64,000 bases of DNA, taken from Escherichia phage pinkbiff. This document shows positions 7,911 through 55,275 of this stretch, piece after piece; position 1 is the first letter of the stretch; each line of letters begins with the position of its first letter. The position numbers were made by a program, and so were the translations under genes. The stretch lies in the sequence record MN850603.1; one strand, given 5' to 3'. The notes under the pieces were generated by a model. That model was given only the letters and a program-made list of their open reading frames with translations, was not told the origin of the DNA and made no database searches.

Positions 7911-15908
<7,998 letters not shown>

Positions 15909-27462: not shown

Positions 27463-27612
27463 TGTACGTCAGAGACATACTGTATAAGTCTTCCTATAAA
27501 GTATAACTCTGTAAAAAAGCCCTGTCTAAAAATACTCTTCGGTAGCGAAAGGAAGAATACTTATAGCAGGGCATTATTATTATTTTAATTGAGAGAGAGT
27601 AAAATAACTTGG

Positions 27613-27685
27613 AGAATCCGAAGGGACTTGAACCCTTATAAACCTGTTTTGCAGACAGGCACATAGCCATTTCTGTCACGGATTC
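27613..27685 (-). tRNA. tRNA-Cys (GCA)
   Basis: hand-fold: acceptor gaatccg/cggattc, T-arm aaggg-acttgaa-ccctt, anticodon stem cctgt/acagg with loop reading GCA, discriminator U73. Confidence 0.7.
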
Positions 27686-27692
27686 AAATTGG

Positions 27693-27782
27693 AGGAAGAT
27701 ACCAGACTTGAACTGGTACACCGATTTCTCAGCTACTGGCAGTTTAGCAAACTGCTCCCTTACCTTTTAGGGTTAATCTTCC
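27693..27782 (-). tRNA. tRNA-Ser (GCU), long variable arm
   Basis: acceptor ggaagat/atcttcc, T-arm accag-acttgaa-ctggt, anticodon stem gcagt/actgc, about 90 nt. Confidence 0.65.
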
Positions 27783-27783
27783 A

Positions 27784-28509
27784 TTATTTCTGCAATGCGT
27801 TCTTCATTTCTGGTGTTGCAATAGAATCGATTACACCAGTTTTACAAGCATCATCAAACCAGTCTGGTAAGATACCTGCTAAGAACCCATTGATATTCGT
27901 TTTAAGGTACTCTGCAATAAGGGCAGCTTCTTCTTCAATCATCTGCACAACTTCATCTGCATAAGCTGTAATCTTTGAAATACCTTCATTAATCTTACTA
28001 ACAGCTTGGTTAGCTAAATCAGAAATAGTATCAAGACCTTTATCAATAGCATCCTGTAAGTCACTTAACACATCATTAACACCATCTAGTGTACTGTTAA
28101 TCGTATCCATAGCTTTTTGACCATACTCTGTAGCAACACCCATAATACCACTAAACGGTGTACAGCCAACTTGCTCTCCTGCTGCACCCATAACATTGGA
28201 ATAACCTTTTGCTACCTGCATACGTGATGAGAACTCATCAATGGACTTTTGACCGTAATCTGTCAGCGTCTTAGTAGTTGATGTAGTGCTTGTCAGACTC
28301 GTTGTAAAGCCATTAAGCAGAACTGTTGTAAGTCCAGCAGCAACAAGCTTATCCTTTACTGTAGGGTCTGATACAGAGCTAATAGAGTTTACAAGTGATG
28401 TAGAGGCAGCTACGGTTCCACCGAGAACTGCTGCACCAGTAATAAGGGGATTAGAAAACCCTCTACCGGTTTTTAAGAGATTGAAAATCTCCTTACCTTG
28501 TTCTGTCAT
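27784..28509 (-). CDS. hypothetical protein embedded in tRNA island
   Basis: ORF fits exactly between tRNA-Ser (ends 27782) and tRNA-Phe (starts 28538); ORF track extends to 28581 through the tRNA, so the internal ATG at 28509 (MTEQGKE) is preferred; S/T/G-rich. Confidence 0.35.
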   Translation of the reverse strand: MTEQGKEIFNLLKTGRGFSNPLITGAAVLGGTVAASTSLVNSISSVSDPTVKDKLVAAGLTTVLLNGFTTSLTSTTSTTKTLTDYGQKSIDEFSSRMQVAKGYSNVMGAAGEQVGCTPFSGIMGVATEYGQKAMDTINSTLDGVNDVLSDLQDAIDKGLDTISDLANQAVSKINEGISKITAYADEVVQMIEEEAALIAEYLKTNINGFLAGILPDWFDDACKTGVIDSIATPEMKNALQK

Positions 28510-28537
28510 CTCTTTCATTAAGCACCTTTGAAATTGG

Positions 28538-28611
28538 TAGTCCAGTGGGATTTGAACCCTATTCTCATGTTTTTCAGACACGCGCTTTAACCATATAAGC
28601 TACTTGGACTA
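28538..28611 (-). tRNA. tRNA-Phe (GAA), fold imperfect
   Basis: anticodon stem with loop CUGAAAA, D-arm GCUU/AAGC, T-loop motif present but T-stem and acceptor pairing ambiguous by hand. Confidence 0.45.
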
Positions 28612-28620
28612 TAAATTGGG

Positions 28621-28692
28621 GTGACCTACGGGATTTGAACCCGTATAGACCATGTTCACAGCATGGGTCATTACCATTTATGATAAGGCCAC
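28621..28692 (-). tRNA. tRNA-His (GUG)
   Basis: acceptor gtgacct/aggccac (one G-U), T-arm acggg-atttgaa-cccgt, anticodon stem ccatg/catgg, C73. Confidence 0.7.
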
Positions 28693-28726
28693 ATTTAAGG
28701 CCTCTCGTAAGAACCCTTAGAAGTGG

Positions 28727-28799
28727 CAGCGGCATAAGGATTTGAACCTTAATAGGACAGCTTCAGAGACTGCTGCATTGCCAGTTATGCTATACCGCT
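28727..28799 (-). tRNA. tRNA-Gln (CUG)
   Basis: encoded CCA, T-arm taagg-atttgaa-cctta, anticodon loop CUCUGAA, G73. Confidence 0.65.
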
Positions 28800-28807
28800 A
28801 AATTTGG

Positions 28808-41971: not shown

Positions 41972-42520
41972 ATGGAAAAAGATAACTTAAAAGGTGTTGA
42001 AGATAACTACCTAGTACTTGATTGGAATGATATTCGGGAAGCACTATCTGAAGAAAGCCTTGACCTGCTAGAGCAACTTATCTTCTCAGTACGCCATACC
42101 AGAGGTATTGTAAACGGTAAAGAGCCACTTGAAGGAATCTTTGTAGAGAAGTCTTATCCGTTCTATGAAGATACTTTGCAGAAAGTTAAAATGTACTTTA
42201 AACAGAAGAACCGTAAAGTGGTCACTATGGTATCTCTTGGTGGACAGAGTATGTCTATTATGGAAGATATCAACCCTAAGAGACCAAGTAAGGGTGTATG
42301 TATAAAAATCACAGGTCATGAAGAGTATGTCTCAGCAAGTGATTTTAGTGTGTTCTGTAATGGTTCTGCTGTCTTTAAGGGGTTTCACTATGAAATCCGA
42401 GTGTACCCAATCAAGGGAGATGATATCATGATGCAGATATTTGATAACAACAATGGATTCACTCATTTTTATCAGACAACCAAGTCATCATTAAAAACAG
42501 TTTTAGAAAACCTGATTTAA
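41972..42520 (+). CDS. hypothetical protein
   Basis: ORF opens at 41915 overlapping upstream gene; ATG at 41972 (MEKDNLK) preferred; start uncertain. Confidence 0.4.
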   Translation: MEKDNLKGVEDNYLVLDWNDIREALSEESLDLLEQLIFSVRHTRGIVNGKEPLEGIFVEKSYPFYEDTLQKVKMYFKQKNRKVVTMVSLGGQSMSIMEDINPKRPSKGVCIKITGHEEYVSASDFSVFCNGSAVFKGFHYEIRVYPIKGDDIMMQIFDNNNGFTHFYQTTKSSLKTVLENLI

Positions 42521-42528
42521 AATATCTT

Positions 42529-42558
42529 AAGAGCCTCCTTAATTGGGGGCTTTTTATT
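42529..42558 (+). terminator. rho-independent terminator closing plus-strand block
   Basis: hairpin AGCCTCC/GGGGGCT followed by TTTTTATT. Confidence 0.5.
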
Positions 42559-42559
42559 G

Positions 42560-44140
42560 AGTAAAATTTACGAAATTTATATTTTTATAAAATTTTATCG
42601 GTTGTCCCAACCTCTGGGTCACCATCATATGTGAATAAAATATCTATCCTTCTTAACAGCCTTCTTAATCTTACTCTCTATGTAGTTATATAGTACTATA
42701 TAGTATCTTAGTAACTATCTAGTGGTCTTAATAGCCCTCTGTATAACCCTTCTAACAAGCCCTCTAACAAGCCTTCTAAACACTCTTCTAACAAGCCTTC
42801 TTAACAACCTATACAATCACCTTAATCATCCATCTACACCCTCTTAGAAGCTCCTATACACCTCTTAATCTCTAGGTTACCTATGTTACCCTCTATAGGT
42901 GTTCACTAGGTATTACTAAGCCTCTATATAGACTGTTTTAACAAACTTAACAGGAATATCTTTACAGACCTTATCTCACAAGGTCTAACACGGTACTAAC
43001 AAGGTATCTTATAAGCCTGTTTCTACCTGTATTTTTAAAATACTGTCTAGGTAATTATTCAGAATTTTAAAATTTTTATAAAATAGAGCTATCAAGTCAT
43101 TTTTTAGGGTCTTTGAAGGAACTGAAAAATATCTGTCTAGGATGTATATCTGCTTGGTAGCCCTTAACAGCTCCCTTACAAGTACTTTGCAGAATTTTAA
43201 AATATCATTAACAGTTTCTTAACAGTTCTCACATCTTCTTAACAACTCTTCAAAGGTCTTAACAGATTCTTAACAGAACTAACAAGGGCTTAACAGTTTT
43301 CTAGGGATTGGTAACAATACCAATTAACAAGTACTGAATAGGCTTTACAGAATCTTAACAGATGACTAACAAGAGCTAACAAGTTAATTTTAAAGAGTTA
43401 TTTTGTTAAGATAATTAACAAGTTCCTAACAAGTGTTTAATCTTTTTAACAAGCTATTAACATGGTCACTACTCTTTTCTTATCGTTCCCTTTCCTTTCT
43501 TAGTGACTTCTTAAACATACCTCTTAAAAGCTCTTAAAAGCTCTTTATAGGCTCTTTTAAGTCCCTCCCTAGTATTTACCCCTCAACTGTATGGATAGCT
43601 CTTTATAGGGCTTTACAGGAGCTTTTAAGGCTATGCCAAAGGTTCTTACAAGGTTTTTACGTGGTCTTAACAGAGATTTAACAAGGTGCTAACAAGAATA
43701 ACTATGTAGGGTTTGTTAAGAAAATGTTAAAAAAATGTTAAGGGGGCTAGCATTTACGTAACTTTTAAGCTACTTCAAAGTAACTTTATAACCCCTATAA
43801 CATGCTTTTTAATAGCTATCAAGGGGTTTGTTTAATCATTCACAAGATACTAGCCAGCCTATAAGCTTTCACCCTTATAAGATTCTTTTAAGGCTCTGGG
43901 AAGCTTTATAAAGGGCTTTTAAGGGTGAGGTAATGCAATCCCTTAAGTTAGGTTAATAAGGCCGTTATAGGGCTTTATAGAGCGTTTAAATGGTTGCCCT
44001 TCCCTTTCGGGTTATGGGCTTATATTTAAGTTGATTTGATAAGAGGTTATAGAGTAGACTATAGAGTTATTGCTTTTTAAGGTCTAGTAAGATTCTGGAA
44101 AGGAAAGGGAAAGGGTTTGTATAAGGATTCGATAGACGTA
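42560..44140. repeat. noncoding region with dense short repeats (TTAACAG / TAACAAG and CTTTATAG / CTTTTAAG families)
   Basis: no ORF of 60 aa or more in any frame across about 1.6 kb; more than 25 copies of (C)TTAACAG or (C)TAACAAG, many spaced 10-20 bp apart in 43200-43460; flanked by convergent terminators. Confidence 0.6.
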
Positions 44141-44142
44141 AA

Positions 44143-44215
44143 AAAGCCCCTATGAGATAGATTCTATCGAATCCATTTTGAGTAGGGGCTGTTCAGGTAT
44201 CTGGGGCTATTTAGC
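44143..44215 (-). terminator. rho-independent terminator closing minus-strand small-gene array
   Basis: minus-strand hairpin AGCCCCTA..TAGGGGCT followed by U6. Confidence 0.5.
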
Positions 44216-44228
44216 CCCGTTGCGTCGA

Positions 44229-44477
44229 TTAGTTGTAACCTTGTTTGCTGTAGTACAGGGAGACAATCAAATCACCCCAGTAATGATAGTGATGCTCATC
44301 GTTTATGGCCTCTTTTACGGCATCTTTCCAGAAGTCATCAATAGGGTTATAGTCTGGGATAACTTGCTTGATAACTGTCTTCACTAAGGAAAAGCATTCA
44401 TCAGTTCCGCCGATATCAAATTTAACGTCCAGAGTATAACAGCCATAAGCATTTACAGTAGCGCGGATAGTTGCCAT
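44229..44477 (-). CDS. hypothetical small protein (cassette-array gene)
   Basis: 82 aa; ATG follows conserved leader with AGGAGA Shine-Dalgarno. Confidence 0.5.
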   Translation of the reverse strand: MATIRATVNAYGCYTLDVKFDIGGTDECFSLVKTVIKQVIPDYNPIDDFWKDAVKEAINDEHHYHYWGDLIVSLYYSKQGYN

Positions 44478-44560
44478 TTTTGAATCTCCTAGTTTAAGGG
44501 TTTTATTTTAGTGGGGAAGTTCATTCCCTCCCCGTTGATTGACAATTTACAGATTTTTGA
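44478..44560 (-). repeat. intergenic cassette, variant A
   Basis: minus-strand order: TTGTCAATCAACG, hairpin GGGGAGGGAA..CTCCCC, then CTAAAATAAAACCCTTAAACTAGGAGATTCAAAA before the ATG. Confidence 0.6.
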
Positions 44561-45077
44561 TTGTCTCGTCAATATCTTTTTCAATATCTTTTAAAGTTTT
44601 TTCTAAGTTCTTGATATTGAACGTTAAACCTTCACCGATGGTTTTAGCGTAACCGTTAGGTCGATGGTCGTAAAGCTCGATATCTTCCACATCGGATAAG
44701 TTTACTCTTTCACCGTTTGAAGCGTAAGCCATTGAAACAGTATTTACAGGGGCTTTATAAAACTTGTTTAAGGTCTTGATTGAACGCTCATAAGCCATTT
44801 TATAGCTATTTAAAAGGTTTTTAACGTGGCTATGAACGTTTTTGCACTCATCCAAGTAAATCCCTAAGAATAGCGGTAATAATTCTGCTACAGCTTGCAT
44901 AAAGTGAGAGACTACAACGGTTGCAGCATTGCGACGATGAACGTAATAAGCCCCGTTTTCTGATTTGGTGATGGTTGCGAAGTGTACACCATTGCAGCGA
45001 AATTCGTAGGTATCTTTGACAGGCTTTGACATTACAGCATTTGAACGAATATAGTTGATGGCTTTGAACTTGTTCAT
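44547..45077 (-). CDS. hypothetical protein (cassette-array gene)
   Basis: ORF track extends into cassette (MTSPLNKTLKLGDSK is translated leader); start reassigned to ATG at 45077 (MNKFKAINY). Confidence 0.5.
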   Translation of the reverse strand: MNKFKAINYIRSNAVMSKPVKDTYEFRCNGVHFATITKSENGAYYVHRRNAATVVVSHFMQAVAELLPLFLGIYLDECKNVHSHVKNLLNSYKMAYERSIKTLNKFYKAPVNTVSMAYASNGERVNLSDVEDIELYDHRPNGYAKTIGEGLTFNIKNLEKTLKDIEKDIDETIKNL

Positions 45078-45160
45078 TTTTGAATCTCCTAGTTTAAGGG
45101 TTTTATTTAGTGGGGAGGTCATCCATCCCGTTGATTAGTAATTTACTTGTTTTGATAGCT
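45078..45160 (-). repeat. intergenic cassette, variant A
   Basis: near-identical to 44478-44560 (hairpin arm variant GGGGAGGTCATCCATCCC). Confidence 0.6.
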
Positions 45161-45298
45161 GATTGCAAGCAATTTTTTAAGCTTATCTATAAAGAACCTT
45201 TTAAGTGAATCCCTTTTAGAATAAACCCCCTCGAACAACATTACCAATGTCAATAGGTATTGTCAACACTTTTTTAAAAGTTTTTTATAAGTTATTGA

Positions 45299-45640
45299 TT
45301 AACTGATGGATATTTTTTCAGGTTTTACATAGTTGGCACGTTGGATTTTTAGCAGGTCATCCCAGATTAGTGCGGCAATATGAGCATAACCGGATTCACG
45401 TAGAAGCTTCATTGCTTTACTTCTCGTTTCAAATCGGTTTGCATAGTACTCACTATTCAGAGTTGTTTTCTTCCCTTCATTGTCTACATGAATAATCTGC
45501 ATTACTTTGAAGGGGCTTACATCCTCGCCTTTATTCCATTGCTCAAAGTATTTTAGGCACTGCATAGGTGTCATCTTATCACTTACTTGAGTTGACCAAG
45601 ATGAATCCGGTTTATTGGTAATTACAGTTACGTGAGCCAT
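45299..45640 (-). CDS. hypothetical protein (cassette-array gene)
   Basis: start reassigned from 45706 to ATG at 45640 (MAHVTVIT) immediately after conserved SD. Confidence 0.5.
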   Translation of the reverse strand: MAHVTVITNKPDSSWSTQVSDKMTPMQCLKYFEQWNKGEDVSPFKVMQIIHVDNEGKKTTLNSEYYANRFETRSKAMKLLRESGYAHIAALIWDDLLKIQRANYVKPEKISIS

Positions 45641-45725
45641 TTTTGAATCTCCTAGTTTAAGGGTTTTATTTAGTGGGGAGGTCATTCCCTCCCCGTTGAT
45701 TGACAATTTACAGACTTTTATCAGG
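45641..45725 (-). repeat. intergenic cassette, variant A
   Basis: CATTTTTGAATCTCCTAGTTTAAGGGTTTTATTTAGTGGGGAGGTCATTCCCTCCCCGTTGATTGACAATTTACAG on plus strand. Confidence 0.65.
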
Positions 45726-45730
45726 CTTGT

Positions 45731-45964
45731 CTAGTCTTTTTCAATGATAATTTCATATTGACCATCAACACTATCAAAATAAATGCCGTCGTCGTCTTCT
45801 GTCTTAAAGTAGCATTGAATATCATCACTTGCGGGGTAGTCTTGCCTTGCTATCTGGCAAACTTGAATAGCATTTTCTTTACTTCCTGTAAACTCCTCAA
45901 GCCCTTTAAAATCGCATGAATGACCATTACAGATGGAAAGGATGAGATAAATGGTTGTAAGCAT
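45731..45964 (-). CDS. hypothetical small secreted/membrane protein
   Basis: 77 aa; N-terminal hydrophobic MLTTIYLILSICNG; no cassette directly upstream. Confidence 0.4.
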   Translation of the reverse strand: MLTTIYLILSICNGHSCDFKGLEEFTGSKENAIQVCQIARQDYPASDDIQCYFKTEDDDGIYFDSVDGQYEIIIEKD

Positions 45965-46029
45965 GACTTAAGCCCTCTAAAAGCCCCTACAAGGGGCTAA
46001 TTAGTGTTTATAAGGTGATTATATAGGTT

Positions 46030-46572
46030 TTAGAAAAAGCTCTTTAAATCTCTCTCTGTGATGTTTCCTGTCAGTGTGTCCATGATGTCACAAAAAACCT
46101 GAATACTGTCCGACTGTTGAACGCTTTTAGCAAGAAGTTCCAGAGACTCATCAAGATAGTTTAAATTTGGGTTATCCAGTGAAGGAAGACAAAAAGGCGA
46201 AAACATCGCATTAAACTCGGTTACGTAAACCTTTTTAATCCAACTTGCATCAAAGTACTCTGTAAAACTTGCCACGCCAGACATATTATCACAAGAATAA
46301 TCATCATTCAGCTCATCCTCTGGAATATCAAGTTCCAAGATAACAATATTTTGAGTTTTCATCTGGAAAGCTGCGGTGATAGCGGCATTGCCTAATGCTT
46401 GCTGGATACCTTCAGATGCTATCTCTTCCGCATCGTCGCCATAGATTTTATTTTCTGGATATACGTAAAAATTCCCATCCATATCCGAACAATTCCATGC
46501 GCCTGATGGTTTATCGCCGTTATTAATCAGGTTGAGGAAGTTTTCTTGAGTAGTACCGTGAAAGCATTTCAT
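46030..46572 (-). CDS. hypothetical acidic protein (cassette-array gene)
   Basis: 180 aa; ATG follows variant-B cassette. Confidence 0.5.
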   Translation of the reverse strand: MKCFHGTTQENFLNLINNGDKPSGAWNCSDMDGNFYVYPENKIYGDDAEEIASEGIQQALGNAAITAAFQMKTQNIVILELDIPEDELNDDYSCDNMSGVASFTEYFDASWIKKVYVTEFNAMFSPFCLPSLDNPNLNYLDESLELLAKSVQQSDSIQVFCDIMDTLTGNITERDLKSFF

Positions 46573-46655
46573 TTTTGAATCTCCTAGTTTAAGGATTGAG
46601 TGGTAAAGCTCTTTATCTGGGGCTTAAGATATCAACTTTTAAGCCCCCTGTAAAG
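46573..46655 (-). repeat. intergenic cassette, variant B
   Basis: same SD/leader but hairpin GGGGCTTAAGATATCAACTTTTAAGCCCC and CTGTAAAGTACTTTAT. Confidence 0.6.
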
Positions 46656-46659
46656 TACT

Positions 46660-46863
46660 TTATCGGTTATTTTTGACAACTTTTAAAACAGCACGGTAAC
46701 CTAAGCAATAGGAATCACCGAAGAGCGACCGACCCATGAAGGAGTCCTCTGTAATATCTTTCGCCGTGACGGTTTTTTCTACGCCGTGAAAAAGAACTAC
46801 ATCCCCGGCTTTAATGTCTTTGATGTGTGTGGTTTCAATGGTTAAGCCGTTAATAATAGCCAT
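46660..46863 (-). CDS. hypothetical small protein (cassette-array gene)
   Basis: start reassigned to ATG at 46863 (MAIINGLTIE). Confidence 0.45.
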   Translation of the reverse strand: MAIINGLTIETTHIKDIKAGDVVLFHGVEKTVTAKDITEDSFMGRSLFGDSYCLGYRAVLKVVKNNR

Positions 46864-46945
46864 TTTTGAATCTCCTAGTTTAAGGGTTTTATTTAGTGGG
46901 GGGCTGGTCATTCCCTCCCCGTTGATGTGTAACTTAATATATATA
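46864..46945 (-). repeat. intergenic cassette, variant A
   Basis: conserved leader plus GGGGGGCTGGTCATTCCCTCCCC hairpin. Confidence 0.6.
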
Positions 46946-46970
46946 TAAAAACCAGTGTCAACAAAAATTT

Positions 46971-47375
46971 TTAAAGTTCTGCATAAATTGCATCACAGAT
47001 ATTACGGAAGTCGTGATTTGACAAATTACGCTGCAACCAAGTGGCGAAAAAGTCAGCGATTGCATAATTAGCATCATACTCGACGGATAGCCATACTTTT
47101 ACGGCGAATCTGAACATTTTTAAATCAAGCTCTTTATTCATTACCTTAGATTTGCCCAACATGTCAGCCATTTCATATTGCGCACCGTCTAGCGTGATAC
47201 CTGCTGCAACGTCAGTTAATGAGTTTTTCACGTTTTCAACGTCTAAGATAACACTTTGAATCTTCCCAATAATGTTGTGCAATGTTTCATCAGGTGCTGA
47301 TGATGTCAGAACATTAATCCGGTTAACTGTCAAACGTGCTTTTAAGATTGATAACTCACGGTTATTAATAGCCAT
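46971..47375 (-). CDS. hypothetical protein (cassette-array gene)
   Basis: 134 aa; ATG follows variant-B cassette. Confidence 0.5.
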   Translation of the reverse strand: MAINNRELSILKARLTVNRINVLTSSAPDETLHNIIGKIQSVILDVENVKNSLTDVAAGITLDGAQYEMADMLGKSKVMNKELDLKMFRFAVKVWLSVEYDANYAIADFFATWLQRNLSNHDFRNICDAIYAEL

Positions 47376-47460
47376 TTTTGAATCTCCAATTTAGGATTTA
47401 GTGGTAAAGCTCTTTATCTGGGGCTTACTTTATCGAACTATAAGCCCCCTGTAAAGTACT
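47376..47460 (-). repeat. intergenic cassette, variant B
   Basis: GGGGCTTACTTTATCGAACTATAAGCCCC hairpin plus CTGTAAAGTACTTT. Confidence 0.6.
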
Positions 47461-47462
47461 TT

Positions 47463-47735
47463 TTATACTAAATGCAGTTTTTTACCTTTTACTATGATGT
47501 AACTTGATGCGCTATTACTTTGCACATCTTGATAAATTCTACGCAAACGGCCTTTATAGTATACTTTCCAACTGGTTGGAATCTTTTTCCCGTATCCTGT
47601 AGCAGTTTTTTGCAGTCCTGCAAGTTGCCAATCTAAGATATGTTGTTCGGCTTGTAAATCCTCGAAGTGCATTACACCGTTCACATAGTGACGAAGGGTT
47701 ACGTTTAAGGTGCGACCGTTGTTAGTAGTATACAT
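47463..47735 (-). CDS. hypothetical small protein (cassette-array gene)
   Basis: 90 aa; ATG follows variant-A cassette. Confidence 0.5.
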   Translation of the reverse strand: MYTTNNGRTLNVTLRHYVNGVMHFEDLQAEQHILDWQLAGLQKTATGYGKKIPTSWKVYYKGRLRRIYQDVQSNSASSYIIVKGKKLHLV

Positions 47736-47805
47736 TTTGAATCTCCTAGTTTAAGGACTTTGTTTAGTGGGGAGGTCATTACCTCCCGTTGATTAGTAAT
47801 TTACT
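47736..47805 (-). repeat. intergenic cassette, variant A
   Basis: conserved leader plus GGGGAGGTCATTACCTCCC hairpin. Confidence 0.6.
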
Positions 47806-47809
47806 TGTT

Positions 47810-48154
47810 TTAAAAACCAAAATCAAGAGAAATTTTTCGTTTGCTCAATTCTTGAACAATTACAGTGTAATAGTCTTTCAAATCACTGACATTTAAAGCA
47901 TTTATCAGAGAATTATAATCATCAACTAACTGAAAATTATCTTTGAAGATGTCACTTATCTGATAGGTTTTCGCTTTATATCTGAAGCTCATCTCTAGCC
48001 GCTTTATTTGCTCATCACTGAGGCGCCCTAGAAAGCTTTCTACAAGGCTATTACTAACCTGCTGTGTGATTGCCTTATTTGCTAGATTATAGGCTTTATA
48101 TGCCTTATATAGCGCGAAAATGGCAATGATTGCAGTGATACCAGTCATTAACAT
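47810..48154 (-). CDS. hypothetical membrane protein
   Basis: 114 aa; N-terminal hydrophobic MLMTGITAIIAIFALY; no cassette directly upstream. Confidence 0.45.
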   Translation of the reverse strand: MLMTGITAIIAIFALYKAYKAYNLANKAITQQVSNSLVESFLGRLSDEQIKRLEMSFRYKAKTYQISDIFKDNFQLVDDYNSLINALNVSDLKDYYTVIVQELSKRKISLDFGF

Positions 48155-48227
48155 GGTGTTTCCTCTTTACGTGATACTTTGCCATTTACAGTTATCTCAT
48201 AGGATTCTAATAAATCGCTTTTAGACT

Positions 48228-48443
48228 TTACAGGACTTTTAAAAGTATCATCATAGATATTAACTTGCAATACAGGTTTTTATACTCCCTGCAACTGTTC
48301 CATAAGCAAATCACTACACGACGGCCTTTTATTTTGCCGTGTAACCATTCCATAACATCATGATTATTCCTTGATGTTTCAATGAAATCAATTTTGTTGA
48401 GTAATTTGCTTAGATTTTCACGCACTTGATTTGATAATTTCAT
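48228..48443 (-). CDS. hypothetical small protein (cassette-array gene)
   Basis: 71 aa; ATG follows variant-B cassette. Confidence 0.45.
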   Translation of the reverse strand: MKLSNQVRENLSKLLNKIDFIETSRNNHDVMEWLHGKIKGRRVVICLWNSCREYKNLYCKLISMMILLKVL

Positions 48444-48535
48444 TTTAGAATCTCCTAGTTTAAGGGCTTTATTTGATAAATCTCTTTATCTGGGGCTATC
48501 CTACCAGCTTGATAACCCCGTGTAAAGAAATCTAT
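48444..48535 (-). repeat. intergenic cassette, variant B (divergent)
   Basis: conserved SD/leader plus GGGGCTATCCTACCAGCTTGATAACCCC hairpin. Confidence 0.55.
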
Positions 48536-49048
48536 TTAGTTCTTAAAGATATTCATCACTGAATCTTTTAGTGATTCCAAACGTTCTAATACTTCAGATT
48601 CTGCGTCTGAATTGTTCACCTCTTCTTTTAGTCTATCCTCTAAATCAACGCCGTCGCTATAGCACCAATCGAAAGCGTAACCAATAAAAAAGCTGTCTAA
48701 AACCGTTTTACCGTTTTCATCTACAACTTTTGCGGCTAGAAGGTATTCTGAAGCCTCTAAATCCCTTTCTAGTTCTCTTTGTAAGCTGATATAAGCCTCT
48801 TTTGAAGGGTTTTCCCGGCCTTGTTTTGCATAGTCGCTTGAAAGCTGTTTAAGGCTGTAATGTAAAGGGATTGCATATTTAAAAGCACCATAACGATAGT
48901 TGGGGTTTTTAATAGTCACACCGCCTTTATGGTCATCTGTAAACTTCCAATAATCAAGATTATAGCTTGATTCGTAGCAATTTACCGCTTCGTAGATGAT
49001 GGAAAATTTTTCTTTTACAACTTCAAAGGTAGCGTCTACAGTTTTCAT
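48536..49048 (-). CDS. hypothetical protein (cassette-array gene)
   Basis: 170 aa; ATG follows variant-B cassette. Confidence 0.5.
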   Translation of the reverse strand: MKTVDATFEVVKEKFSIIYEAVNCYESSYNLDYWKFTDDHKGGVTIKNPNYRYGAFKYAIPLHYSLKQLSSDYAKQGRENPSKEAYISLQRELERDLEASEYLLAAKVVDENGKTVLDSFFIGYAFDWCYSDGVDLEDRLKEEVNNSDAESEVLERLESLKDSVMNIFKN

Positions 49049-49130
49049 TTTTGAATCTCCAGTTTAGGATTAAGTGGTAAAGCTCTTTATCTGGGGCTTA
49101 AGATATCAACTTTTAAGCCCCCTGTAAAGT
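49049..49130 (-). repeat. intergenic cassette, variant B
   Basis: near-identical to copy at 46573-46655. Confidence 0.6.
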
Positions 49131-49133
49131 ACT

Positions 49134-49427
49134 TTATTTGTTAATTTTCAGCTTTGCATAACCTCTCATTGTACGAATGGGGGATGTTAATGCTACGCGT
49201 CTAATGTATGCCTTTTTCGTGTATACATTTGTCTTCCCGATAGTGTTTACACATGTAAAAAGGTTTATCGGTGAATTTTTTAACTTCAAATGTTTATCAA
49301 CCTTTACGCCCCATCTTACAGCGGATTGTTTTCCGTTGTCAACCACTTTCCCGCCTAACTTTTTCGCCATGATGCGAGCGTCATCACGAGTTTTTGCAGG
49401 AATTACAACGTTTTTGATAATAGCCAT
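49134..49427 (-). CDS. hypothetical basic protein (first gene of cassette array)
   Basis: 97 aa; ATG follows variant-A cassette. Confidence 0.5.
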   Translation of the reverse strand: MAIIKNVVIPAKTRDDARIMAKKLGGKVVDNGKQSAVRWGVKVDKHLKLKNSPINLFTCVNTIGKTNVYTKKAYIRRVALTSPIRTMRGYAKLKINK

Positions 49428-49500
49428 TTTTGAATCTCCTAGTTTAAGGGTTTTTATTTAGTGGGGAAGTCATTTCCTCCCCGTTGATGCAAATACTAGA
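49428..49500 (-). repeat. intergenic cassette, variant A
   Basis: conserved leader plus GGGGAAGTCATTTCCTCCCC hairpin. Confidence 0.6.
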
Positions 49501-49683
49501 TAACCCCGTTCGAATAGTCAAGAAAAATTTTAAAAATATTTTTGGCAAAATTGTAATGAAACGGGTGCGCGCGACTACCACAAAACAGAGCTACAATCAA
49601 GAATTATTTTTCAATCCGCTACAAATTTTTCTGTTGACTTTTCTTTTCGGATGTGGTAGCCTTGTGAGAAATGGCGACATCCC

Positions 49684-49880
49684 TACCTGCACCCACCTAC
49701 CTGCACAATTCTAAAATGATTTTTCTTGCCCGACCTGATTTTTCTCTGCACGTTTTGAAAATGAAAAAGCTCTTTGGAGATTACCTGCACAGTTTGAAAA
49801 TGAATTTTCTCTTTGGAGTTCAAAATTCTCTCTACAGATTTCTCTATAGAAATATACCTGCACAATTCTGAAATGAAAAA
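49684..49880. repeat. direct repeats (CCTGCACA-N-TT-N-TGAAAATGA, at least 4 copies) upstream of cassette array
   Basis: copies near 49699, 49746, 49783 and 49855, plus tandem CCTACCTGCAC x2 at 49684-49706 and CTCTTTGGAG x2. Confidence 0.55.
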
Positions 49881-49949
49881 GCCCTCCTTACCTGAAAAAT
49901 TTACCAGATAAGAAAGGCTTAGTCTATTGTGAGTATTTTACAGAGTTTC

Positions 49950-50735
49950 TTAGTTCTTTGCGTCTAAGAAGGTAAGCTCTGGTGAAGAGAAGATTAACTC
50001 GATATCCTCATCAGTTCTCGCATAGATATAAGTATCTGCATCACTGCCAAATGTTACTGCAATCCTGTGATTGCTCTTCGACAGGTGGGTAACTAGAGCG
50101 TTACTTAGAGACATCTTTTCAACCGGAGGGTTACTTTGATGTATCTTACCTTTTCTTCGTCTGAAAAGGGTAACTGCATTATCCGTGAACACTGCTACAC
50201 CTGCAAAGTATTCTGGTTCACAGTAGTTCTTCCAACCTGAGAGTAACTTGTGGTACATCTCTCCTTCATAGACATACAGATAAACATCTACACTCTTCAT
50301 GACCTGATTGATGATAACTGTGACAGCTTGAGGGTCGAGTCCACCGATACCTGCACCAATCATAGGTAGACCGACTTTCTTCAACTGGTTAACTTCACAG
50401 TATCTGTTAAGCTGTTTCAAAGATGACTCTAAAGCACTGTATCGTGCATCTTTACCAGTCTTAAGCTGAGTGTAAAGGTTAGCTATACGGCCTTGTTTTA
50501 AACGTGCTACAGAGGAATTACCCAGTAAATTTTCACAGGGTTTGTGTCCTATACCACCTGCATATAGATAAACTTCTGTATCGGTCTCATATGCTTTTGG
50601 GTAAAGTTTAGAAATCTTGTCAGCGATACCTGCACCCATTAAATTCATACAGTTGCAACCGTGACCGATGATGTCAAACTTACCTTTATCAAATGCGGAA
50701 AAGATATCACCGTTGATAATTTTTACAATACCCAT
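49950..50735 (-). CDS. macro-domain protein (TARG1/OARD1/DarG-like ADP-ribose hydrolase fold) with unknown C-terminal domain
   Basis: 261 aa; N-terminal GDIFSAFDKGKFDIIGHGCNCMNLMGAGIADKISKLYP matches the GDLF..HC....MGAGIA signature of TARG1/DarG-type macrodomains. Confidence 0.55.
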   Translation of the reverse strand: MGIVKIINGDIFSAFDKGKFDIIGHGCNCMNLMGAGIADKISKLYPKAYETDTEVYLYAGGIGHKPCENLLGNSSVARLKQGRIANLYTQLKTGKDARYSALESSLKQLNRYCEVNQLKKVGLPMIGAGIGGLDPQAVTVIINQVMKSVDVYLYVYEGEMYHKLLSGWKNYCEPEYFAGVAVFTDNAVTLFRRRKGKIHQSNPPVEKMSLSNALVTHLSKSNHRIAVTFGSDADTYIYARTDEDIELIFSSPELTFLDAKN

Positions 50736-55196: not shown

Positions 55197-55275
55197 CTTA
55201 TTACTCTCTCTTGTTAGTTAATAAATCATTTTGTAAGGCTATTCTAAGGGGCTTCGAAGCCCCTTGTCAAACACT

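Follow-up and report, generated by a model that had tools for sequence, protein, structure and literature searches.

A hyperplastic ORFan array of Felix O1-like phages built on repeated cassettes of predicted promoter, stem-loop and shared leader

The 64,000-nucleotide (nt) stretch of Escherichia phage pinkbiff analysed here (record MN850603.1, hereafter the window) belongs to a Felixounavirus: positions 44200-49700 match 254 phage records at 89-96% identity, almost all of them Felix O1-like myoviruses with Escherichia, Salmonella, Shigella or Citrobacter hosts, the closest match being Alf5 (Ounavirinae; Felixounavirus). This region holds, on the minus strand, an array of twelve small genes, the counterpart of Felix O1 genes 14-23, lying downstream of a macro-domain 'phosphatase' gene (49950-50735) and of the U-tract terminator t13 (49920-49879), and most of these genes begin behind one of ten copies (six of type A, four of type B) of a repeated cassette (44475-49521, minus strand; Table 1). 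The array genes are uncharacterised ORFans, as a first-pass annotation made from the sequence had also held: ten of the products gave no match in a Pfam search, and the PHROGs matches were to families of unknown function only. A role of these genes in host takeover or anti-defence is a guess.

A cassette runs from the -35 hexamer or the start of its hairpin to the ATG of the gene behind it and measures 91-101 base pairs (bp), longer than the roughly 80 bp given by the first-pass annotation, which was right in placing ten of the twelve genes behind a near-identical leader and in naming the two exceptions, 45731..45964 and 47810..48154. The 24-mer leader CTTAAACTAGGAGATTCAAAAATG has 8 matches at no more than 3 mismatches, 6 of them exact, all on the minus strand between 44475 and 49448, where chance would give 0; the remaining two copies (ATG 49048 and 47375) carry the variant CCTAAA(C/T)TGGAGATTCAAAAATG. 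The cassettes are adjacent and share one orientation, and nhmmer searches with profiles of both types found no further full copy within the window and no copy in the complete Felix O1 genome outside 8330-12059. Of the two genes without a cassette, 48154-47810 has an ATG that overlaps the end of the upstream reading frame (in relatives it overlaps the preceding gene), and 45964-45731 is preceded by a different hairpin, AGCCCCTTGTAGGGGCTTTTAG.

Table 1. Coordinates of the array genes, cassettes and terminators in the window; all features lie on the minus strand (SD, Shine-Dalgarno sequence; -35 and -10, predicted promoter hexamers).
Feature	Coordinates	-35	-10	Hairpin	SD	ATG	Remark
Twelve small ORFan genes	44229..49427						Felix O1 genes 14-23
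Terminator t13	49879..49920						Canonical U-tract terminator; ends the upstream operon before the cassette array
Cassette A1	49425..49521	TTGACT 49521-49516	TAGTAT 49498-49493	49482-49463	GGAG 49439-49436	49427	17-nt spacer
Array gene 1	49427-49134
Cassette B1	49046..49136	TTTACA 49128-49123	TATCTT 49105-49100	49136-49078	49060-49057	49048	Two-part hairpin around the -35 and -10; TG at -15/-14
Array gene 2	49048-48536
Cassette B2	48441..48534	TTTACA 48526-48521	TAGGAT 48503-48498	48534-48477	48455-48452	48443	Variant upper stem GGGGTTATC/GATAGCCCC
Array gene 3	48443-48228						Truncated
Array gene 4	48154-47810
Cassette A2	47733..47826	TTGATT 47826-47821	TAAATT 47803-47798	47787-47769	47746-47743	47735
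Array gene 5	47735-47463
Cassette B3	47373..47463	TTTACA 47455-47450	TAAAGT 47432-47427	47463-47405	47387-47384	47375
Array gene 6	47375-46971
Cassette A3	46861..46961	TTGACA 46961-46956	TAAGTT 46936-46931	46920-46898	46875-46872	46863	Degenerate; 19-nt spacer via (TA)n run; weak hairpin (z -0.97)
Array gene 7	46863-46660
Cassette B4	46570..46662	TTTACA 46654-46649	TATCTT 46631-46626	46662-46604	46584-46581	46572
Array gene 8	46572-46030
Array gene 9	45964-45731
Cassette A4	45638..45733	TAGACA 45733-45728	TAAATT 45710-45705	45694-45675	45652-45649	45640
Array gene 10	45640-45299
Cassette A5	45075..45168	TTGCAA 45168-45163	TAAATT 45145-45140	45129-45112	45089-45086	45077	Weak hairpin (z -1.07)
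Array gene 11	45077-44547
Cassette A6	44475..44572	TTGACG 44572-44567	TAAATT 44549-44544	44533-44513	44489-44486	44477
Array gene 12	44477-44229
Array end	44133..44216			~44216-44192			Hybrid hairpin CAACGGGGCTAAATAGCCCCAGATA, then canonical U-tract terminator (~44186-44133)

All ten window cassettes carry the pattern of a sigma-70-type promoter, a -35 and a -10 hexamer about 17 nt apart (19 nt in one cassette), and the hexamers of the two types fall in register in a MAFFT alignment; a generic promoter scan on its own lists seven of the ten. A type A cassette begins with an A/T tract and TTGACx; a 17-nt spacer separates these from TAAATT (or TAGTAT), and after about 7 nt more, the last two of them CA, come ACGGGGAGGG..CCTCCCC and the leader. 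In 109 unique copies of type A, drawn from 30 related loci, the -10 reads TAnnnT in 109/109 (TAAATT in 81) and has a near-consensus -35 at exactly 17 nt in 105/109; the -35 occurs in six forms (TTGCAA, TTGACA, TAGACA, TTGACG, TTGATT and TTGACT), the spacer is unconserved, and the A-tract upstream is conserved, with 78% A+T in the 11 nt preceding the -35. Conservation of this kind fits what would be expected of working sigma-70 promoters rather than of a repeat that was copied wholesale. In type B, preceded by AATAAAGTA, TTTACA is invariant in 113 unique copies and is followed 17-18 nt downstream by TAnnnT in essentially all of them, the latter represented by at least 11 different hexamers in which positions 1, 2 and 6 have high information and positions 3-5 almost none; the -10 hexamer keeps this position-specific conservation although it falls within the hairpin, in its loop and 3' arm, and a TG of the extended -10 (TGn) type stands before it in 51% of copies. 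Transcription would be predicted to start at the A of CA-ACGGGG in type A and at about the A of CCCC-AGAUAAAG in type B. Elsewhere in the window, the rIIA/rIIB intergenic region (55235-55270, minus strand) contains a promoter (TTGACA, 18 nt, TAGAAT) around GGGGCTTCGAAGCCCC, with a hairpin within the spacer; the site is a weak match to the type B profile, so that the same design principle is also present outside the array.

The two hairpin variants named by the first-pass annotation are both present, in six and four cassettes, but type B is a two-part structure of 58-59 nt and not the 29-nt core described there. Hairpin A (CAAC-GGGGAGGG..CCTCCCC) has a G/C-clamped stem of 7-8 bp. Folding energies are -14.6 to -18.7 kcal/mol (z -2.3 to -3.5) for four of the six copies in the window, the other two, before 46863 and 45077, being weak (z about -1); in relatives at least 6 bp form in 107/109 copies, with a mean of -13.9 kcal/mol where shuffles give -3.5 kcal/mol. 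If transcription begins some 7 nt past the -10, as predicted, hairpin A would occupy +3..+24 of its own mRNA, the stem beginning 2-3 nt from the 5' end; placed behind the start site predicted for its own gene, it would be for that gene an element of the 5' untranslated region (UTR) and not a terminator. Stem-loops at the 5' terminus shield Escherichia coli mRNAs from 5'-end-dependent decay.

Hairpin B (GGGGCTTAA..TTAAGCCCC, or GGGGTTATC..GATAGCCCC in the cassette before 48443) encloses the promoter. Its lower stem spans 12 positions, TAAAGTACTTTA pairing with TAAAGAGCTTTA; beyond a 3x3 internal loop comes an upper stem of 9 bp, topped by a loop of 10-11 nt, and the folding energies lie between -24 and -27.5 kcal/mol (z -3.4 to -4). 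In an alignment of 104 distinct copies, 98% of cells are paired, compared with at most 59% when the partners are slid; double-sided changes number 19 cells where 3.3 are expected, and both this count and the covariation score exceed those of all 500 shuffles. Compensatory pairs include i) G-C/U-A (82:12) in the lower stem; ii) T-A/A-T (90:22) and A-T/T-A (88:18); iii) four pair types at the top of the upper stem, whose top three pairs were scored by an anchor-based script (gap placement defeated the alignment tool); and iv) GGTG..CACC in place of GGGG..CCCC in Erwinia phages. G·U cells (about 190) vastly outnumber A·C cells (about 4), so the structure is selected on the sense strand, that is, in RNA; and because the predicted start of type B lies just 3' of the upper stem, the RNA form of hairpin B would be confined to read-through transcripts coming from the gene upstream.

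The first-pass annotation had taken the cassette to be the preceding gene's terminator joined to a ribosome-binding leader. Part of this holds, in that the hairpin half travels with the preceding gene and a promoter-less hairpin stands after the last one; the promoter in every copy was missed, however, and a U-tract follows none of the ten cassette hairpins (the tails are ACUAAAUAAAA in type A and AGAUAAAGAG in type B), nor does a terminator scan flag any of them. The true terminators of this genome do carry U-tracts, and neither hairpin can therefore be a canonical intrinsic terminator. The promoter-less copy is a hybrid A/B hairpin directly after the last stop codon, lacking the leader as well and exactly preserved in at least 6 relatives, and this associates the hairpin with the 3' end of the message upstream of it. 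A search of Rfam (E-value mode) over 42400-50000 gave no RNA family and only two sub-threshold chance matches. As to the leader, GGAG stands 7-8 nt before the ATG in 10/10 cassettes, within A/U-rich sequence that is predicted to be essentially unpaired. Several cassette genes also start with ATGGCTATTAT (M-A-I-I/N; 49416-49427, 47364-47375 and 46852-46863, minus strand), so the repeat reaches a few codons into unrelated open reading frames (ORFs); this extension may be a footprint of crossovers or may reflect selection on the initiation region.

Comparison with relatives places the breakpoints of genome rearrangement at the cassettes. Thirty loci were collected (27 usable and anchored on the macro-domain gene, plus Mordin and one Erwinia phage), and the repeats, as the first-pass annotation would have had it, are present in all related genomes, with 7-17 cassettes per locus in constant position and orientation. 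Clustering yields 33 ORF families in 26 different architectures among 27 loci: gene order is kept while single-gene modules come and go, and one gene family sits in two different slots, depending on the genome. The residual entropy of cassette type is 0.037 bit given the upstream gene, compared with 0.249 bit given the downstream gene (total 1.0 bit, n=266), so that cassette type follows the upstream gene, and this places the crossovers in the shared leader. Three swaps illustrate the point: i) A-gene8 in the window corresponds to A-gene7, B-gene8 in others; ii) A-gene5 in some loci corresponds to A-gene12, B-gene5 in the window; and iii) A-gene28, B-gene2 in one locus corresponds to A-gene2 in the window. 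Nucleotide alignment puts the junctions of all three between hairpin and ATG, in the shared leader. In pairwise identity profiles, insertions of 300-480 nt open inside cassettes, and ORFs fall to 35-65% identity between flanks of at least 90%, with the transitions at cassettes. Three loci contain back-to-back cassettes without an ORF between them (L029 12115-12311, L024 7338-7523 and L034 125-284), joined at short homologies (AAAATG/AAAGTG, or GCTTTAC), which look like scars of ORF deletion. Cassette A3, whose (TA)n expansion, 19-nt spacer and degenerate hairpin (46898-46961) recur in Alf5 and in one IMG/VR relative, is probably a decaying cassette.

The type B core occurs in 287 phage records, including Felixounavirus, Mooglevirus, Suspvirus and Erwinia Kolesnikvirus (all Ounavirinae), and type A in 242; the Erwinia phages retain promoter and hairpin with a different leader. 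Homologues of two array ORFs found by tblastn are mostly from Ounavirinae, with distant ones in Pseudomonas and Vibrio myoviruses, and these searches gave no clear evidence for cassette-borne transfer beyond Ounavirinae.

We conclude that the array is a hyperplastic ORFan region of composite promoter, stem-loop and leader elements that extends across Ounavirinae. Our preferred interpretation, to which we assign a probability of roughly three in four, is that these cassettes, which are of the promoter-early stem-loop (PeSL) type described in T4-like phages, make each ORFan an individually promoted and uniformly translated early unit, and that the shared leader mediates gain, loss and exchange of these units. 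Each cassette would then combine i) a host sigma-70 promoter, with an UP-like A/T tract in type A and a TGn extended -10 in about half of type B; ii) a G4/C4-clamped RNA stem-loop, which in type A would cap the 5' end of the gene's own mRNA and also stand at the 3' end of any read-through RNA from the upstream gene, and in type B would serve as a 3'-end element of the upstream gene in read-through RNA (attenuator, processing site or exonuclease barrier); and iii) an unstructured leader, nearly identical between copies, in which GGAG precedes the ATG by 8 nt. Every ORFan would thereby be an early unit of its own, strongly and uniformly expressed, and the leader common to both types would offer portable homology at which crossovers could insert, delete, replace or move units composed of an ORF and the promoter and hairpin downstream of it. 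For the hairpins we regard a non-canonical attenuator, a 3' exonuclease barrier and, in type A, a 5' stabiliser as candidate roles.

In Felix O1, ORFs 16, 20, 21 and 22 of the block, and ORF13 just upstream, were maximal at 5 minutes by reverse transcription PCR. Several observations weigh against this interpretation, however. ORFs 14, 17, 19 and 23 peaked at 25 minutes in the same phage, so that expression of the block is not uniformly immediate-early; the cassette -10 hexamers match the consensus at only 4/6 positions; the TTTACA of type B is also part of the lower stem, and its invariance is thus not independent evidence for a promoter; and two type A copies of the window (ATG 46863 and 45077) are degenerate. 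Hairpin A shows little covariation and could equally be a conserved protein-binding site, and a terminator or attenuator role of either hairpin would, given the missing U-tracts, have to be non-canonical. Promoter use, start sites and 3' ends are predictions, and a literature search found no transcript maps of Felix O1-like phages.

That the hairpins are intrinsic terminators of the preceding genes, the conserved remainder a translation leader only, and all transcription derived from upstream without internal promoters, would account for hairpins just past stop codons, for the linkage of the hairpin half to the upstream gene and for the promoter-less hairpin after the last gene, and some annotators have labelled one such hairpin 'terminator'. 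We nonetheless consider it quite unlikely, because a U-tract is missing and no terminator flagged at 10/10 hairpins while the accepted Felix O1 terminators all have U-tracts, and because it leaves unexplained both the conservation of TAnnnT and the -35 at a fixed 17-nt spacing and the six near-consensus -35 hexamers before hairpin A. More can be said for type B as mainly a set of sites where an early read-through transcript is processed by RNase III, as happens in the early region of T7, with the promoter hexamers secondary, an idea compatible with our preferred interpretation and one that we hold as a tentative possibility; just as tentatively, cleavage in the internal loop would give the downstream mRNA a defined 5' terminus and leave the mRNA upstream with a hairpin that stabilises its 3' end. 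The two-part helix (12 pairs, 3x3 loop and 9 bp, about 21 bp in total), covariation in both stems, sense-strand-specific G·U pairs, and a cut on the 3' side of the loop that would fall near the predicted +1 of the promoter all speak for this, and the overall design of type B agrees with that of T7 RNase III sites; but the TA...T conservation in the loop would be unexplained, the 7-8 bp of hairpin A are too few for a substrate, and there is no Rfam family match.

The inverted repeats might also be DNA operators through which a phage regulator shuts off all these early promoters jointly. They overlap the -35/-10 in type B and +1 in type A, which are classic operator positions, contain the long invariant stretches CCCCAGATAAAGAG and ATCAACGGGGAGGG, and occur in phages of which Felix O1 has an annotated transcriptional regulator (ORF85) and some block genes that peak after 5 minutes. 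Operators are nevertheless unlikely, in that changes in the stems keep pairing and not sequence, the roughly 190 G·U as against 4 A·C cells point to a single-stranded structure of the sense strand, and covariation joins the two arms and does not fall within each half-palindrome. For the same reason, covariation between arms and not within a site, two independent palindromic protein sites (TAAAGnnCTTTA) flanking type B are disfavoured. The adjacency and common orientation of the copies would suit leftover intergenic DNA of a tandem gene duplication with no regulatory or recombinational role, but this is scarcely credible when the flanked ORFs are mutually unrelated (33 families), when cassettes are conserved in four Ounavirinae genera while the ORFs between them turn over, and when conservation is position-specific and limited to promoter hexamers, stems and SD. 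Our own preference remains with PeSL-type cassettes. A bolder version, which we consider doubtful, would have type B serve twice, as promoter in DNA and, in read-through RNA, as a hairpin that RNase III or a phage factor processes by a cut at the internal loop's 3' side, and the array act as an integron without an integrase, in which mini-circles of ORF and hairpin re-enter at any leader. If type B is used twice in this way, primary and processed transcripts of each gene would start at nearly one nucleotide; if mini-circles form, ORFans would move between Ounavirinae genomes.

Some further features of the neighbourhood may be recorded. The 261-residue protein encoded directly upstream of the array (49950-50735, minus strand) was labelled macro-domain by eye from its sequence and carries in relatives the annotation 'phosphatase' or 'possible RNase III inhibitor, RNA processing'; the latter would be of interest should RNase III act on type B hairpins. 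Between the terminator of this gene and the first cassette, non-coding DNA (49540-49880, minus strand) contains 4-5 copies of approximately CATTTTCAnAAnTGTGCAGGTA, 73-84 nt apart. Gene 48443-48228 matches residues 1-56 only of the 98 of phrog_4401, the rest lying in another frame (48270-48148, minus strand), and is either a frameshifted pseudogene or a sequencing error; its intact counterpart in relatives runs into the start of the following gene, an overlap that suggests translational coupling. Cassette A5 is preceded by an unusually long intergenic spacer of 220 nt (45078-45298, minus strand) with an extra promoter-like site, TTGACA-17-TAATGT (45266-45238). Beyond the array, two transcription units converge on a non-coding zone of about 1.5 kb (42560-44100; Felix O1 12305-13928) in which the motif [CT]TAACA[GA] is enriched 14-40-fold on the plus strand, with copies often 10-11 or about 20 nt apart; the arrangement resembles phased binding sites and may be an origin or packaging signal. 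The 26 tRNA genes clustered at 27610-32782 (minus strand) are as expected in Felix O1-like phages.

PeSL cassettes were described in the T4-like phages RB49/phi1, PST and nt-1 (Arbiol et al. 2010, PMC2839356; Comeau et al. 2014, PMC4122927) as an AT-rich region, a sigma-70 promoter, a stem-loop with G/C runs at one of five promoter-relative positions, and SD and ATG; they concentrate in hyperplastic regions before ORFans, with breakpoints at the elements, and their promoter and attenuator activity and the existence of mini-circles were shown by experiment (PMC2839356, PMC4122927). The likeness to PeSLs that the first-pass annotation had seen is borne out feature by feature: every sequence-readable part of the definition is found in the Felix O1-like cassettes as predicted from their sequences, including the place of the stem-loop (type B has it between or over the -35/-10, type A directly behind the -10), the hyperplastic region before ORFans, and insertion, deletion and replacement breakpoints at the cassettes. 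They differ in that i) they belong to Ounavirinae and not to the T4-type phages to which PeSLs were originally circumscribed; ii) there are only two discrete types, with a near-identical common leader; iii) they form one 5-kb array, whereas PeSLs are scattered over several regions; iv) crossovers fall in the leader 3' of the hairpin, whereas the AT-rich upstream part was suggested for PeSLs; and v) type B has a long, two-part, covarying hairpin. We wish to stress that PeSL denotes a functional class, and we claim no homology or sequence relationship for the Felix O1-like cassettes.

PeSLs have previously been described only in T4-like phages, and for Felix O1-like phages our literature search found no PeSL-type description beyond a list of repeats. 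That list, in the Felix O1 genome paper (Whichard et al. 2010, PMC3185647), gives direct repeats of 57 and 39 bp, two copies each, without interpretation; the 57-bp repeat CTTTACATGGGGCTTAAAAGTCTGTAAAGTAAGCCCCAGATAAAGAGCTTTACCACT is the type B core and the 39-bp repeat TTGACACTGG...CATCAAC a type A promoter. The same paper states that promoters in the block region were not found, and it offers no reading of hairpin, leader or recombination (PMC3185647). The Mordin record annotates 14-nt 'repeat_region' features.

Three other systems share single features with the cassettes. Type B, and type B only, resembles the RNase III sites of T7, which are also intergenic two-part hairpins with an internal loop in an early region transcribed by the host polymerase; T7 RNase III sites are not known to contain promoters, and T7 early genes use three common upstream promoters. 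Hairpin A, predicted 2-3 nt from the mRNA 5' end and before an unstructured leader, recalls the 5'-terminal stabiliser hairpins of the ompA 5' UTR type reportedly described by Emory, Bouvet and Belasco in 1992, although the type A start site is only predicted and the sequences are unrelated. The early 'UP/-35/TGn/-10' promoters of T4 (Hinton 2010, PMC2988021) are likewise multi-element and sigma-70-dependent, with A/T-rich upstream tracts and frequent TGn, but the -10 hexamers of the cassettes (TAAATT, TATCTT) are weaker, and for Felix O1 no Alt/Mod-type modification is known.

Candidate promoters can now be assigned where the Felix O1 genome paper reported none, and the cassettes offer two compact natural expression units (promoter, 5' hairpin and ribosome-binding site) for enterobacteria, while the 100 or more natural variants of hairpin B constitute a data set on how promoter and RNA structure share bases. 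If the leader is where units are exchanged, each ORFan should be cleanly deletable or swappable there, which would be useful for engineering Felix O1-type phages for biocontrol and therapy. The PeSL principle, in which expression and exchangeability of an accessory gene come from one and the same short unit, would extend to an unrelated subfamily of myoviruses, and its occurrence beyond the T4-like phages suggests a convergent and general solution for ORFan 'gene nurseries' in virulent phages.

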